Origin: Candidatus Firestoneibacteriota bacterium
GTDB lineage: Bacteria > Oederibacteriota > D2-FULL-39-29 > JBDRBU01
Direction of reading: 5' to 3'
DNA: 21,892 nucleotides
Assembly (NCBI GenBank): GCA_043822305.1
Contig: JBDRBU010000083.1
Span: 1 to 21,892, forward strand
The position numbers are program-made. Shown piece by piece: positions 3,001 to 18,000 of the stretch (positions are counted from its first letter, which is position 1; each line of letters opens with the position of its first letter).

Positions 3001-6000
3001 AAGCATTCCCAACTACTTCTGCAACTACCCAGGCAACTGCTGTATGTCCGGAAGGAAATGAATCATTAGTTAAAGATGGTCCGATGAAATTTAAAGGGTC
3101 ATTATTAGAAGATGGTCTAACTCTACCTAAAAAACATTTAATACCATTTACTATTATTCCGGTTTCTACGATTGATTCTACAACTTGTCTTGTAACTAAT
3201 CTTTCCTTTTTTCCTCCAATCACATCCACAACACCACATATGGCTAAATCAAACATCCCATCACCCAGAATATCTATAAAACTAATAAAATCAAGTGTTG
3301 AATTTTTTGATGAGTTAAACTTATCCCGAAAATATGTATCATTTTTCAATATTGAGTATGTAATAATACTTACCGGCGCTATTATTAAAAAATCTTCTAA
3401 TTTTACATTAAATGGTGAAAGTACTTCTTCACCTAAATGATTACCTACATTTGTAAAAAAGTTATACTCCTCACAATAACCATTGTTAAAGAACAAAACA
3501 AAAAGTATTATCATATATCTCAATGCACAGGAAAACATATTTTTTCTTTTTTTACTTTATTTTCTTTACCTTTTTGTATCCTACGCAGGCTAAAGCCTGC
3601 GGCTACATTAATTTTTACTTTCCTTAATAAGTCTCTCATAAATACCAAGCATTTTCTTGGCCATGTTTTCTGAAGACATTTCTAATGCCCTTTCTCTGGC
3701 TTCTTTTGCTTTTGCATCATATAAATTTTTATCATGTAAGAGTCTTACAACTTTCTCAGCAAAGTCATTTAAATCATTCTTAGTTAAATATCCGCCCGTT
3801 TGTTTTTCAAAGCCGTTCATCATATCTATAACTCCCATTTCTCCTACACATACTACTGGCTTATTGAAATACATTGCTTCAAGTAAAACCAAGCCCTGAG
3901 TTTCTGTTAAAGATGCAAAAACGAACAAATCTTCAGCAGCATAAGCATTAACCCAATCCTGATGATTCAAAAATCCAAGAAAAACTATTTTATTATACAC
4001 TCCTAATTTTTTTGCTTGTTCTTCTAACTCTGGTTTTGCAACACCTTCTCCGGATATAACTAATCTTGCATTTGGAATTTCTTTTAAAATTAAAGGTAAT
4101 GCATCTATAAGAAAATTAATATTTTTTTCCCTCCCAAGTCTACACATACAAAGAAGCATTTTTTCATCTTTCCCAATATTATATTTTTTCCTAAAATCAT
4201 CACCGTTGTAACCTTTGAATTTATCCAGATCGATACCGGTAGGCATTATTTCTATGGGTACTTTAACTCCGTACTCAACCAAATCTTTTGCCATCTGTGG
4301 TGATGGTGATATTACAAGGTCACACTTATTTAGAATGTAGGCACTGTATTTCTTTGTTATTGCTGAAAGCGGTTTCCTGAGCCACTTTATATTCATATAG
4401 GTATTAATGTATGTTGGGTAAAGCGTATGATATGTATTTACAATAGGTATTCCTAATTTCCTGGCAACTGTGATACCATTCCAACCAAGAGGAAAAGGTG
4501 ATTGTGAATGTATTATATCAAGATTAAGTTTTTTCCAATCCTGCTTCATAAACCAAACAACGGGCAACCTGTATTTAGGAGGAAATGGTGCAGACATTGA
4601 CCAGCATCTTATTATATCTGGCTCATTATCCACATATTTAGGATACTTTGGAGCAACTATATAAACCTTATGCCCCATCTTCCTGAATTCTTTTGTATAA
4701 GACATTATAGATGTTACTGCACCATCAACTGATGGCAAATAATCATCTCCTGGCAATGCTATATTCATATTTTACCTCCCCCTTGTTAGTAAAAAAAGTA
4801 ATTAAAGTATTTTTACTTTTCTTACTTTCCTTACTTTTCTTACTTTTTTTACTTCCTTTGCTTTCCCCACTTCTTTCACTTTCTTTATTATACTACATTC
4901 CCCTGGCCAATGTAAAGACTCTTATTTGACTTGCTCCATCACCAAGTAGCATCGAACTACATTCATCTGCTGTAGCGCCTGTTGTTAATATATCATCAAC
5001 AAGTAAAACGCAAGCCCATTTAATTTTTCCCGGATTTCTAATTTCAAAAACTCCTTTAACATTCAAGAATCTATCTTCTTTACTTAATTTATGCTGTGGA
5101 ATAGTTTCTTTTACTCTAATTAAAACATCCGTAAATAAAGGAATTTTAAAATAATCTGCTAAACACTTAGATAATAACTCTGCCTGATTATAGTCCCTTC
5201 CACTTTGTTTTTTCTTATACATAGGAACCGGTATTATACAATCTATGTCATCTACTCCACAATTTTCTTTTATAAACTCTACCATTAATTCACCAAAATG
5301 TTTTGCCAATACTCTACATCCTTTATATTTTAATAAATGTATACCTTCTTTTAAAACACCTTCGTAAATTCCAACTGATCTATTATCAACAAAAGAAAAC
5401 CTCTGTCTTGTGCAATCCGCACAAAAATTTTCATCAGACGAAGTCAACTGTTTACCACAGTAAACACACATTGGATGTTTAATTATTTTTATCTTACCCC
5501 AGCAACCACCACATATAGATCCTTTTCTATCTTTATCTAACTTATCACTACAAATTTTGCAATTTGCAGGAAAAATAATATCTAATATCCCTATTATGAT
5601 ATTTTTTACTTTTTCCACTTTTCCCACTTTCCCCACTTATTTTACTAGAATATTGCATTTACTTTTAAACTAATTCCGTAAGCATAATAATTATTAACAT
5701 TAGATACATAATCATTAAGATAACTAAATTGAAATCCTAAATCTGCTCTGATATTTCTTGAAAAATTATACTCCACTGAGGTTGAAATTGTATAAAGGTC
5801 CGTTTTAATTTCACTGCCTATAGTAGCCCCACTTGTTTTATTCCTAACCATATTTAAGTTAAACCTACTGTTTAATCTTACAGCTTGCTCAATTTTTATA
5901 ATTGCACCTCCAAATGGCCAAAAGTCTGGAAGTTTAATCGGGTCATTAAAATTAAGATTTAAACTAAGGTCAACTCCAGGAGTATAACTTATGTTATTGT

Positions 6001-15000: not shown

Positions 15001-18000
15001 AGTCTGTCCATTAAGTTCTTCGGTAGCAGTAAGTGTTGCTTTATATATCCTTTCCGCAGTGCTACTTATTTTTTTTGAAACTATGGATACAGGAGTTGCC
15101 CCATTATATATACCATCAGCACGATTTATTTTTGCAGTATTTCCACCAAATAATAAATATGTACCATTCCATCCAATAGATTTTATTGTATTAGTCCCCC
15201 AGGAAGCATCTAACATAGTTTGTGGAGGACCAGTAGGACCATCACCTAACCCTATAAAGTTACTATCTGCAATTCCTGCTCCATCATACTTTACAAATTT
15301 ACCTCCACTACCAACAATATACCAATCATAACCATTCCATACCATAGAATAAACAGTGTTTCCACCAAAGTTCCCACCTGCTGATGTCGTAAGTGCTGTC
15401 AATGAAGTAGCTACTGTCCCATCGTATTTTGTTAGTTTCCCATCTGCACCACCAACTAACCAGTAAGAATTATTCCAGGCTATAGAATAGATTTGACTTG
15501 TGCCAAAACTAAAATCAGTAGTTAAATTTGTCCAACTTGTTCCATCATATTTTCTCATCTGCCCATTTGCACCACCTATTAGCCAATACGAACCATTCCA
15601 GCCAATTGATGAAATTGCATATCCTGTTGAGTGAGTTCCATCTGTTATAAAAGTAGCTGCGGTTGATAAATCTGTACATGGTGCAATTGTAACTCCATCC
15701 CATCTATTTAACTTACCATTATCTCCGCCAATTAACCAGTAACTTCCATTATACATAAGTATATTAATTGAATCCGGAACACTATCATGATCAGGAGGAG
15801 GACTAGGATGATCTACTAAATGAGAATAATTTGTAAGAACAGAAGTAGCGATGGTATATGTAGAAAAATCATATTTATTTAATTTTGGCCCACAATAATA
15901 ACCTCCACCACCAATCAAATAATAAGAACCTCCCCAGAGTAAAGAATTTATATTAGCATTCCCAAAATCATAAATTGTACCAGATAAATCAGTAAAAGAA
16001 CTTCCATTATAAGAAACTATTCTTGGATGGTATGTTATTGTATCTATATCATAATAATAATCCCCTCCAATAAGCCATTTAGTAATACTATATCCCAATG
16101 TATTAATATTACTTGTTCCAAAATAATTAGTTATAGTTGCACCGCTAACTGAAAGGTCAGTAAAAGAAGATATATATGGCAATTTTGCAAAATGATTTGT
16201 TGTATCAAGCATTGTAGTAGAACTGGTGGCAGAAGTATCTATATTAGTCCAACTACTAAAATCTTCTGAAAATGAAAAATTTTCAGAATACAATAAACAT
16301 GGAAAGAAAAACAATATAATAGTACTAATAATTAAAAACTGCTTTCTCATATTTTTAACCTTTAAAAATTTGTAAATATTCACTGAACCCCATCACCATA
16401 CATTTAAACTTTGGAGTGCAAAATCGGTAATTTTGCATTTGCAACAACATCGTTGTTACACTCCATAAAATCATTAAAATTGCTTCAATCTCCATTCACA
16501 ATGATGATGTTCAGTAAGGATTTACAAAAATTTCCCCCGCCACTATTCATGACGGGGGATAAAGTTTAATAAATACATTTATTCAAAACTCCCCTGTCCG
16601 TCCACCTCTGGCGGACGGACATGAGGAAGTTAACTTCACCTTAATATGTTGTAAAAGAGTTTCCCTTAGTATCTGTTCCTATGCTATTGCAATGAATTTC
16701 TCCTGCCTCTGCTCCAGCTGTATCTGTCACATATGCCCATCCTGTCCCAGTTCCTATAGCGGCAACATTAGCCACTGCGGTTGTTGCATTAGAATTTTGC
16801 AATGGACTTGCTTTCGCCGGTGGAAGTGGCCACAAGTAACTCGTGAATGAACTTGTTAAATCTGTTGGCCATGTTCCTTCTTTCTCAGAATAGTAAATGG
16901 AAATCGATGAACGGATTGCAGCCACATTTCCTTTTGTTGCTCCTTCTCTTGCTTTCTCTAACATTTGAGCAAATCTCGGAATTGCTATAGCCGCAAGAAT
17001 TCCAATGATAGCAACAACTATCATTAGCTCGATAAGAGTAAACCCTTTCTTCCCTTTCTTCCCTTTTTTCCCTTTCTTTTCACAGCATCCCATCTTTCTC
17101 ACCTCCTTTCAAATTTTTTGTTTAGATTTTATTCATTATTAATTATAACAAAATATATTCATTTTGTCAATAGCAAAAAATCTTATTTAGTGCTCTGCTT
17201 CTTTAAAACTACTTTTTCCCATTCTAATAAAATCGGGCTGGCCACAAAAACCGATGAGTATGTTCCGATAATTACCCCAAAAAACAACGCTAATGAGAAG
17301 TCGTGTACAACTTCTCCACCCAATATAAGCAAGGCAACAATAATTAAAAGAGTTGTTATAGAAGTCATCATGGTCCTGTTTAAAACTTCATTTACACTTA
17401 AATTAATAATGCTCTCTAAACTTTCTTTAAATTTACTCTTTAGATTCTCTCTTATTCTGTCAAAAACAACAACTGTATCTGTTAAAGAGTATCCAGCGAT
17501 AGTAAGTATAGCAACAACTATAAGCAAAGTAAATTCTTTGTTTAGAAAATAAAAAATGCCAATAATACAAAAAACATCATGTAAAGTTGCAATAGCCGCC
17601 GCAATGCCAAATTTAAATTCAAATCTAAACCATATATAAATCGTGATCCCGAGCATAGCCAGTAAGATCGCCCAAAATGCTTGTTGTTTTAACATTTTGC
17701 TAACAACTGGACCGATATCCTCAATCCTGTCAATTGTAAATTCCTCTCCGGCAAGTCCGGTTTTAAATATCTGTGTTATATACTCTCCTAATTGTCCAAC
17801 TTTAATATTTGATTTTTTTATTCTAAGTAATACTTTCAATTTTGGCTCTCCATAAGCATCAGAAATCTGCTGGATATTAGCATCAGGAAGTCCGTTTTTA
17901 ATTAAAATCTCCCTAATCTTTGTAATATCAATTTCTTTTTTAAATTTCAATGAGACGACACTACCACCCGAAAAATCTATACCCAAATTGGCATTCCCTA

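Follow-up and report, generated by a model that had tools for sequence, protein, structure and literature searches.

The window analysed here, a stretch of 21,892 nucleotides from a Candidatus Firestoneibacteriota genome, raises the question of how proteins might be exported where a SprA-type pore and carrier barrels encoded next to their own cargo are found and the known motor genes are missing, as such a system was thought to be confined to Bacteroidota and to depend on a motor. An earlier note on this DNA had described the set as a motor-less relative of T9SS, the type IX system for secretion, occurring outside Bacteroidota.

The previously unannotated gene g01285 (5645..10702, minus strand) encodes a putative giant outer-membrane beta-barrel translocon of the SprA/Sov family, 1685 aa long and carrying a signal peptide (MLKGLSILIIFLISINAING); its open reading frame spans 5645-10738, and the ATG at 10702 is the probable start. 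The NCBIfam SprA model TIGR04189 matched the protein in four collinear stretches (E 2.1e-50) with 171.2 bits, which falls under the curated cut-off of 200 bits, and no Pfam family was matched at E≤0.01. A profile built from 26 homologues matched SprA of F. johnsoniae in three collinear stretches (6h3j_A, E 6.6e-52; 6h3i_A, E 8.5e-52), these being the only two distinct PDB sequences retrieved at E≤0.01, while a single-sequence phmmer search of PDB gave no SprA match at E≤1. The Pfam domain SprA_N is present in 17 of 48 homologues, and the series of homologues grades into proteins named SprA (P0043, E 2.5e-42, and P0049 of Bacteroidetes, E 7.9e-27). When residues 700-1685, the last 986, were modelled with AF2 (pLDDT 83.3), the top four Foldseek matches were all SprA chains (E 6e-29 to 2e-23). 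The TIGR04189 match, the PDB profile and the predicted fold thus confirm that g01285, though very divergent, is a genuine homologue of SprA/Sov. This was the proposal of the earlier note, whose PDB profile result (6h3i_A and 6h3j_A only), negative phmmer search and SprA_N-bearing homologues were all reproduced.

The window also holds a gene for a potential substrate. The protein g01289 (14083..16350, minus strand; 755 aa when counted from the ATG at 16350, within an open reading frame that begins with a GTG at 16383) has a signal peptide, a repeat-rich body and a C-terminal sorting/binding domain (CTD) at residues 664-755 (14086..14361, minus strand). It was matched by FlgD_ig (27.1 bits, cut-off 27), CHU_C (18.4 bits) and the Por_Secre_tail model TIGR04183 (23.4 bits, cut-off 23), and its orthologues are P0053-P0061. 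An HMM seeded from its C-terminus, which recognises this domain at E 1.9e-27, was iterated to convergence over 2100 ORFs and settled on 24 of them, 18 at E<1e-15; the shared CTD family described earlier is therefore real, its size shifting from 21 to about 24 proteins with our HMM. Besides one giant of more than 2000 aa, these include M6 and S8 peptidases, beta-propellers and Ig/TIG-rich proteins, with domains of the kinds usually seen in proteins that are secreted or displayed on the surface.

Adjacent to this gene lies g01288 (13066..14049, minus strand, 327 aa), a divergent 14-strand barrel of the PorV/FadL family and a putative carrier or anchor dedicated to g01289. It scored 51.7 bits with the PorV_fam model NF033709, under the cut-off of 90, and 118.8 bits (E 2.5e-35) with an HMM built from the 13 strong PorV paralogues of this genome; a search of 1.84 billion representatives retrieved 3212 relatives at E≤1e-3. 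A six-frame search of the genome with NF033709 gave 17 matches, 13 of them over the cut-off, so that the multiplicity of barrels stands and the number over the cut-off, earlier put at 14, changes slightly; such differences in counts arise because six-frame and own-ORF calling replaced the gene calls of the earlier note. For the structure model of one PorV paralogue, the first matches were F. johnsoniae PorV chains (8gl6_F, E 2.1e-9; 6h3i_F, E 3.1e-9; TMt 0.61-0.64), and FadL was matched almost equally (E 2e-8 against 2e-9). PorV_fam also rings in Bacteroides thetaiotaomicron, and hence membership alone is weak evidence; a Brachyspira protein bearing this label looks FadL-like, according to an excerpt of bioRxiv 10.1101/2025.01.03.631275.

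The direct neighbour of 11 of the 15 PorV-like genes is a same-strand CTD gene, compared with a mean of 0.30 and a maximum of 4 in 20000 shuffles, which upholds the pairing reported earlier for 8 PorV genes and raises its count; 13 of the 24 CTD proteins have no adjoining PorV gene. Complex prediction with g01288 (residues 34-327) and the g01289 CTD (664-755) gave an ipSAE of 0.91 in three of three runs, the best of three controls reaching 0.01, with a partner pLDDT of at least 84 and 105-107 contacts that agreed by 100% across the three runs; among solved complexes 116 of 157 attain the pass mark, and among mismatched pairs 2 of 215. The predicted contact residues form seven spaced groups plus the N-terminus, a pattern in line with a 14-strand barrel, which has seven outer loops. 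The pass could stem from resemblance to SprA-PorV-CTD structures already solved (8gl6).

Divergent from the SprA-like gene lie lptF (10786-11946, plus strand; TIGR04407, 238 bits) and lptG (11943-13028, plus strand; TIGR04408, 239 bits), conserved neighbours that need not belong to a secretion machine, and 8 bp downstream of the SprA-like gene starts a comF-family gene (4893..5636, minus strand; TIGR00201 ComF, 122 bits, under its cut-off of 233), which is likewise conserved at this place and has no known connection with secretion. Among loci with enough flank, 62 of 67 have divergent lptF/G no more than 4 kb upstream, and 50 of 55 have same-strand comF downstream; this synteny spans Firestonebacteria, Elusimicrobia, FCPU426 and Sumerlaeota records. 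The gene was found in all 31 genomes of a sample of the window's phylum and in 39 of 41 of an Elusimicrobiota sample, and is kept as one copy even in genomes of 1.0-1.4 Mb. It is thus a single-copy, near-universal core gene in this phylum and in Elusimicrobiota, and the claim that the set extends beyond Bacteroidota, to Elusimicrobia and FCPU426 records, is supported.

Core-gene status and the lptGF/comF synteny raise a possibility which the earlier note had left unconsidered, namely that the SprA-like barrel is a housekeeping factor of outer-membrane biogenesis, tied in function to LPS export by LptFG or to envelope assembly, that it does not export the CTD proteins, and that PorV-CTD pairs are independent two-gene units of surface display. 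Near-universal retention as one copy, small genomes included, and the fixed lptGF synteny fit such a role at least as well as that of a secretion accessory, and a PorV-cargo pair with strong matches lies near the SprA-like gene in only 4 of 81 loci (the window, L006, L008 and L010). Nevertheless, the genome encodes a separate LptD (C87:32253-34259, 668 aa, with LptD_N and PDB LptD matches at E 2e-9), so the SprA-like barrel does not replace it; lptC-lptA-lptB lie on contig C24. Moreover, the only characterised relatives of this barrel are protein translocons, and a plugged 14-strand barrel alone would seem to offer no obvious route for a folded protein of 700-2000 aa. Co-occurrence does not tell the two readings apart, as PorV barrels and CTD proteins are equally universal in the phylum (PorV_fam exceeds its cut-off in each of 61 genomes sampled). 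A housekeeping role is considered quite improbable, and the SprA-like protein is treated below as a translocon.

The components expected to power such a translocon were searched for with sequence models. In the genome itself GldM, GldL and GldN gave no matches at E≤1; GldM was found at E≤0.01 in none of 61, 5 and 41 genomes of three samples, GldL in none of 31, and the PorU sortase exceeded its cut-off in none of 31. PorP_SprF (PF11751) gave a best match of 8e-4 (18.9 bits) at C1:1935-2426, recovering the value given before for g00002. Candidates for GldK were limited to FGE-sulfatase domains (best 76 bits, cut-off 350), which adjoin bAvd and a reverse transcriptase, are therefore DGR targets, and were rejected. 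No gene pair with a GldL/GldM layout was seen beside PorV, CTD or SprA-like genes among the loci inspected by eye. The statement that GldK/L/M/N are undetectable is thus borne out, whereas the term 'motor-less' goes too far as written: the Gld models exceeded their cut-offs in 0 of 14 control genomes, so that the absences rest on models without a positive control, and the genome encodes five MotA/ExbB-type stators.

The gene for one of these stators shares an operon with those for a PorV-type barrel and a TPR giant (C123:29683-35096; C41:5625-14929). In its full conserved form the operon comprises a giant CTD protein, a PorV barrel with FlgD_ig, a TPR protein of about 1050 aa, ExbB, ExbD and a TonB_C protein. 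Of 14 relatives examined, 9 have the core (giant CTD protein, PorV/Ig barrel, TPR) intact, with the giant CTD protein upstream in those nine, ExbB called in seven of them and an ExbD and/or TonB_C protein downstream in eight; a tenth relative holds the core partly. In the genome itself the operon ExbB has no adjoining ExbD or TonB gene. Several operon genes belong to no family, namely those for a 304-aa protein that contains an internal FlgD_ig domain, for one of 191 aa and for the 514-aa C68 protein. The two PorV paralogues said earlier to carry the CTD themselves are the operon barrels; their FlgD_ig follows the last barrel strand, a position at which other family members carry LysM or TPR, so that a periplasmic domain is the most likely reading and not a sorting signal. 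The operon may resemble the Agl-Glt gliding complex of Myxococcus, which combines a TolQR-like motor, TonB-like and TPR proteins and outer-membrane barrels. We infer that it is a candidate energiser of export. Ton-powered protein export has a precedent in Myxococcus, where PopC is secreted through Oar in a TonB-dependent manner, according to an excerpt of PMC6434023.

Export might also proceed truly without a motor, CTD binding to the dedicated PorV and folding outside pulling the cargo through the pore, and the complex leaving sideways with no energy supplied from the inner membrane. The lack of GldL, GldM and GldN matches, the assignment of GldK matches to DGR targets and the lack of an ExbD or TonB gene next to the operon ExbB are in line with this, and one carrier per cargo would constitute a stoichiometric sink of binding energy. 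It nonetheless appears unlikely: the Gld models exceeded their cut-offs in no control genome and may thus be of low sensitivity here, the SprA-like protein itself falls under its own cut-off, so that Gld proteins, being small, could escape notice if they had diverged as far, and the gene of a PorV-type barrel is linked to ExbB, with ExbD and a TonB-like gene joining them in most of the relatives examined. Furthermore, ejection of carrier-substrate complexes in Bacteroidota needs energy, as stated in a part of PMC12635249. Such divergence could conceal a complete T9SS, with equivalents of GldL/M/K/N among unannotated envelope proteins, since the translocon scores 171 bits, where about 2000 or more are typical of the family, and escapes single-sequence search, and the operon includes genes without family. 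This is highly improbable given the consistent lack of Gld matches at permissive thresholds and of a GldL/GldM-like pair at the loci inspected, non-exhaustively, by eye.

On balance, the probable explanation is that g01285 is the single SprA-family translocon of this lineage, serving CTD cargo and dedicated PorV carriers, with the Ton-PorV operon as candidate energiser. About two dozen Sec-exported proteins would carry one shared FlgD_ig/Por_Secre_tail-type CTD, which would route them through the SprA-like barrel, whereupon they would be handed to a PorV/FadL-type 14-strand barrel binding the CTD on its outer loops. This carrier would be dedicated, since about half of the cargo genes directly precede their own PorV gene. 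As PorU was not found, a point absent from the earlier note, the expected fate of the cargo changes as well: it would remain bound to the barrel as a surface anchor instead of being cleaved and lipid-linked. As neither a GldLM motor nor a GldKN ring/track was detected, the energy for ejecting carrier-cargo complexes would be absent or different, and the best candidate source is a Ton-type motor encoded by the conserved operon.

Compared with the SprA/Sov translocon and PorV of Bacteroidota (F. johnsoniae; PDB 6h3i, 6h3j, 8gl6 and 8gl8), GldK/L/M/N, PorU and PorP/SprF were not found here with sequence models, and 17 PorV paralogues take the place of one general carrier. As there, the SprA-like protein is a giant outer-membrane barrel with a signal peptide, homologous by profile and fold, although F. 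johnsoniae SprA, at 2403 aa, exceeds it by about 700 aa and its score lies under the curated family cut-off. PorV/FadL-type 14-strand partner barrels and a FlgD_ig/Por_Secre_tail-type CTD on the cargo are common to both, as is, by prediction, a CTD-on-barrel interface. The gene is near-universal, single-copy and fixed between lptGF and comF, whereas T9SS was reported for 60 of 97 Bacteroidetes genomes in a portion of PMC4793230. As in the Oar/PopC system, so far as the same excerpt of PMC6434023 describes it, a PMF-driven ExbB/ExbD/TonB_C set is encoded with a barrel and a secreted or surface protein, the link here being known from genes alone; in contrast to the 22-strand TonB-dependent transporters, the barrel belongs to the PorV/FadL type, has 14 strands and carries an Ig domain that is probably periplasmic, and no TonB box was identified. 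The set also resembles type B T9SS (SprB-SprF): the carriers here are PorV-family barrels instead of PorP/SprF and the CTD is type A-like, but, as in that system, each cargo adjoins its own carrier and would be expected to stay bound to it as a surface anchor.

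The genome under study (G000) is a 2.15-Mb metagenome-assembled genome (MAG) in 125 contigs, 96.8% complete with 2% contamination, and the window is its contig C83. The 1685-aa protein g01285 (5645-10702, minus strand) begins with a signal peptide, and the closest named records to it are Candidatus Firestonebacteria MAGs, which stand under Candidatus Firestoneibacteriota at NCBI (best-segment identity 50-60% in loci L001-L010, tblastn). Its gene is flanked on one side by comF (4893-5636, minus strand), which starts 8 bp past the g01285 stop codon, and on the other by lptF (10786-11946) and lptG (11943-13028), both on the plus strand; these are followed by genes of a weak PorV-like barrel (g01288, 13066-14049, minus strand) and of a protein (g01289, 14083-16350, minus strand) with a C-terminal domain of FlgD_ig/Por_Secre_tail type (CTD). 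On the far side of comF, all on the minus strand, are genes encoding a GT4 protein (3608-4768), a PAP2 protein (2786-3538), a 437-aa protein with MORN and CsgG-like domains (1213-2526) and an aspartic protease-like protein (281-787). A CsgG-like domain is also found at the C-terminus of a PorV paralogue of 473 aa elsewhere in the genome (C39:34995-36416), and another PorV paralogue, of 489 aa on C12, carries TPR. A type IV pilin/pseudopilin-like gene with the N_methyl motif (16641-17102, minus strand) is located between g01289 and secF, and beyond it are also mobA, moeA, an FMN reductase gene and tupA; another pilin-like gene stands ahead of an ExbB-ExbD cluster on C78.

The NCBIfam SprA model TIGR04189 matches g01285 in four collinear stretches with 171.2 bits, under its curated cut-off of 200, which is reached by 4 of 31 orthologues of the phylum when the stretches are summed. 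No Pfam family was detected in g01285 at E<=0.01, while the SprA_N domain (PF14349) is present in 17 of its 48 homologues (E<=1e-5). These homologues form a continuum, from 76% identity through proteins of about 1700-2100 aa to proteins named SprA by their sources, including a 2358-aa Bacteroidetes protein (E 7.9e-27). The single sequence of g01285 found no match in PDB; a profile built from 26 homologues matched the SprA of Flavobacterium johnsoniae and no other family (6h3j_A, E 6.6e-52), with profile positions 127-315, 372-746 and 864-1199 aligned to positions 105-296, 438-900 and 1155-1583 of the chain, so that the homology to the solved SprA is collinear over most of the length. Since the profile match stops near position 1200, residues 700-1685 were chosen for folding. 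The resulting model (41 orthologues, mean pLDDT 83.3) contains beta-sandwich domains and then about 26 long strands within the last 620 or so residues, a giant beta-barrel fold, and in a Foldseek comparison with PDB, SprA chains take the first four places (E 6e-29 to 2e-23), any other family reaching 2e-7 at best. The modest TMq of 0.41-0.42 reflects the fact that half a barrel was folded. In the known SprA/Sov translocon, the barrel has 36 strands, PorV docks at a lateral opening, and there is a periplasmic plug site. Judged by profile and predicted fold, g01285 is a real SprA homologue, and the earlier note was right to call it a divergent one, in view of the 6h3j_A match and the SprA-first structural matches.

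The g01285-type gene is present in one copy in all 31 genomes sampled from the window's phylum, as well as in 39 of the 41 sampled from Elusimicrobiota, with genomes of 1.0-1.4 Mb among the latter. The latter count was obtained with the family profile, as TIGR04189 at E<=1e-18 recovered 9 of the 41 and was too strict (G062, the genome that holds locus L068, scored 0). Among 228 relatives in GTDB species representatives, 80 SprA-like loci were kept: 10 from Firestonebacteria, most others from Elusimicrobia, two from FCPU426, one from Sumerlaeota and a few from records labelled Caldiserica or Clostridia. The order of divergent lptG-lptF, SprA-like gene and comF is retained on the upstream side in 62 of 67 loci and on the downstream side in 50 of 55, counting loci with enough flank, and it spans Firestonebacteria, Elusimicrobia, FCPU426 and Sumerlaeota records. 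This synteny raised the idea that the SprA-like barrel might replace LptD, which was rejected because LptD, LptA, LptB and LptC are all encoded elsewhere: C87 encodes an LptD of 668 aa that contains an OstA domain and matches LptD in PDB, and lptCAB is on C24, apart from the SprA-like gene. The fixed lptGF/comF neighbourhood and the universality of the gene are also compatible with a housekeeping envelope gene, a less probable reading than that of a translocon for CTD proteins.

The translocon reading is joined by a large set of potential carriers. The PorV_fam model NF033709 matches the genome in 17 places, 13 of them above cut-off, and an HMM built from the 13 strong paralogues finds the same 17. 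The barrel in the window, g01288, scores 51.7 bits against a cut-off of 90 with NF033709, and 118.8 bits (E 2.5e-35) with the HMM of its own paralogues. All 61 genomes examined in the window's phylum have PorV_fam matches above cut-off, the number of matches per genome ranging from 10 to more than 30, and at least 23 of 41 Elusimicrobiota genomes have matches at the strict threshold of E<=1e-48. By itself, membership in PorV_fam is weak evidence, because the family also has matches in Bacteroides thetaiotaomicron and a Brachyspira member, FadL-like in appearance according to passages of a preprint (bioRxiv 10.1101/2025.01.03.631275), and because the model of a PorV paralogue, a 14-strand barrel, has PorV as its top match with FadL only slightly behind. 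The argument is carried by the pairing with CTD genes.

The protein g01289 is slightly above the cut-offs of TIGR04183 (23.4 bits, cut-off 23) and FlgD_ig (27.1 bits, cut-off 27), and with Pfam Por_Secre_tail (cut-off 27), three further cargo proteins score 27.0, 32.8 and 37.2 bits. Starting from the g01289 C-terminus, HMM searching converged on 24 of the 2100 ORFs of the genome, so that a single conserved C-terminal sorting domain is shared by 24 proteins; among these are M6 and S8 peptidases, propeller proteins of the SBBP and Kelch types, proteins rich in TIG/Ig, a beta-lactamase-fold protein and a giant of 2031 aa. A CTD gene on the same strand directly adjoins 11 of 15 PorV-like genes, mostly with the cargo first and the barrel second, while 20000 shuffles gave 0.30 such adjacencies on average and never more than 4; the pairing of PorV genes with CTD cargo, also proposed in the earlier note, is borne out by these counts. 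Complex prediction of g01288 with the CTD of g01289 gave an ipSAE of 0.91, with three runs agreeing, a partner pLDDT of at least 84 and a value of 0.01 for the best of three controls; of 157 solved complexes, 116 attain the mark used, as do 2 of 215 mismatches. The SprA-PorV-CTD complex has already been solved (8gl6), therefore this result indicates likeness to that complex and need not mean binding by this particular copy. Many metagenomic PorV-family barrels related to g01288 are 430-700 aa long and carry a coiled coil with LysM, or TPR, beyond the barrel (P0131, P0177, P0186, P0215, P0109, P0112), and they look like outer-membrane barrels anchored to peptidoglycan or to partners in the periplasm.

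Searches for the energy chain of type IX secretion (T9SS) retrieved no GldK, GldL, GldM or GldN from the genome. GldM had no match there at E<=1, nor was it found in 61 genomes of the window's phylum, in 5 genomes behind the named loci or in 41 genomes of the phylum of an Elusimicrobia record, and its model gave no over-cut-off match in 14 control genomes, none of which is T9SS-positive. GldL was not found in the genome or in any of the 31 genomes searched, and GldN was not found in the genome; both models likewise had no over-cut-off match in control genomes. The GldK model found FGE-sulfatase domains alone. The possibility that these are diverged PorK proteins was rejected, since the adjoining bAvd and reverse transcriptase genes identify them as variable target proteins of diversity-generating retroelements (DGR). 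There are two such DGR cassettes with FGE-sulfatase-domain targets, bAvd and reverse transcriptase (C62:1-4768 and C65:2935-6927), one of which is next to the gene of a signal-peptide-bearing Ser/Thr kinase. PorP/SprF reached at best 18.9 bits in the genome. The PorU sortase model NF033707 had no match above cut-off in 31 genomes; among the 150 matches listed (a further 57 exist), 148 were confined to the model's own CTD, at about positions 940-1095, and the two others covered positions 585-773, in G012 and G019. Given that SprA itself scores below its own cut-off, equally diverged short Gld proteins might be invisible to the models. The Gld genes are therefore missing as far as the models see, but the label 'motor-less' given in the earlier note goes too far, as the Gld models had no positive control and a candidate energiser is encoded in an ExbB operon.

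The genome contains five genes of MotA/ExbB/TolQ type. One of them, exbB (C123:34488-35096), is the last gene of an operon that also encodes a CTD-only protein of 115 aa (C123:29683-30030), a PorV barrel with a C-terminal FlgD_ig domain (C123:30038-31267) and a TPR protein of 1063 aa (C123:31264-34455). This ExbB has no adjacent ExbD or TonB. A second copy of the barrel gene (C41:7614-8837) follows that of the 2031-aa CTD giant and is close to the gene of a TonB_C protein (C41:5625-6974), so the arrangement is split over two contigs (C123:29683-35096 and C41:5625-14929); the corresponding loci of relatives are L109 and L111-L118. When the loci of the best ExbB matches in 14 relatives were compared, nine showed the same core order of an Ig-rich CTD protein of 1780-2830 aa, a PorV-FlgD_ig barrel of about 410-420 aa and a TPR protein of about 1020-1070 aa. 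An ExbB ORF comes next in seven of these nine, the ORF caller having placed opposite-strand ORFs there in the other two, and in eight the downstream genes include one or two copies of ExbD, a TonB_C protein or both. ExbB, ExbD and a TonB_C protein are encoded together in relatives (PF01618, PF02472 and PF03544 in a row). The remaining five relatives have a partial operon (one), TPR-ExbB alone (one) or other paralogue clusters (three). In L118, the one locus annotated in more detail, genes of two further proteins follow, one of 304 aa that has FlgD_ig as an internal domain and one of 191 aa.

An assignment of this operon to Tol-Pal was rejected because neither TolB nor Pal is encoded downstream, where unrelated genes come after the TonB_C protein. 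No TonB box or TonB-dependent transporter was identified for the operon. The giant TPR protein was considered as a homologue of SprE/PorW, but SprE was not among the results of the PDB sequence search, which were generic TPR proteins (CpoB, BamD, designed TPRs); the giant may be at most an analogue of SprE/PorW. The FlgD_ig domain of the operon barrel comes after the last strand, where other family members have LysM (4 of 4 tested, two over cut-off and two just under) or TPR (2 of 2 tested). For both reasons the domain is most likely a periplasmic handle and not a sorting signal, and the earlier note probably misread the two PorV paralogs as carrying the sorting CTD. Although the link of a PorV barrel to ExbB, ExbD and TonB_C is a genomic one only, it puts a Ton-type motor first among the candidate energisers. 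The further step, that such a motor instead of GldLM/GldKN powers the system and grips the PorV barrel through the periplasmic Ig domain and the giant TPR protein, seems rather unlikely on present evidence; if true, it would constitute a second, previously undescribed way to energise type 9-like transport or the handling of surface adhesins.

Two more clusters combine a TPR protein of about 950 aa with ExbB and ExbD (C68:5080-13309 and C22:6264-14154). The former also encodes a TonB_C protein, a TPR-SpoIID protein and a 514-aa protein of no family, which has an outer membrane protein-like end (...NIKFM) and an N-terminus resembling a TonB box by eye; in the latter, ExbB has a signal peptide and there are two ExbD genes. 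Beside a HAMP protein gene there is a MotA/MotB(OmpA) stator pair (C110:10697-12155), and sibling clades of this lineage are said, in a figure legend of PMC7031533, to lack flagellar genes.

Taken together, these findings are best explained by a type 9-like system for export and anchoring that uses dedicated PorV carriers, lacks a sortase and is possibly energised by a Ton-type motor. What the earlier note had observed, namely an SprA-like gene, PorV barrels, CTD cargo and no Gld genes found, is confirmed. The system extends beyond this genome, as it belongs to the core of at least two phyla that lie outside the FCB group. A set of translocon, carriers and CTD proteins in which neither an energy chain nor a sortase could be detected makes it testable whether the SprA-PorV module is functional without that chain, and whether a Ton-type motor may replace the GldLM/GldKN chain. 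It also predicts a surface proteome of peptidases, propeller proteins and giant Ig-rich proteins for these little-known, mostly uncultured bacteria. No description of this T9SS-like system in Elusimicrobia, Firestonebacteria or other phyla was found in the literature outside subscription journals. Passages of Abby et al. 2016 (PMC4793230) place T9SS in no clade other than Bacteroidota, and published accounts confine it to Bacteroidota or the FCB group (PMC4793230, PMC12635249, PMC9170169). In comparison with the whole machine of Bacteroidota, the system described here was detected without the GldL/M motor, the GldK/N ring and PorU, whereas cargo bearing the CTD is common to both.
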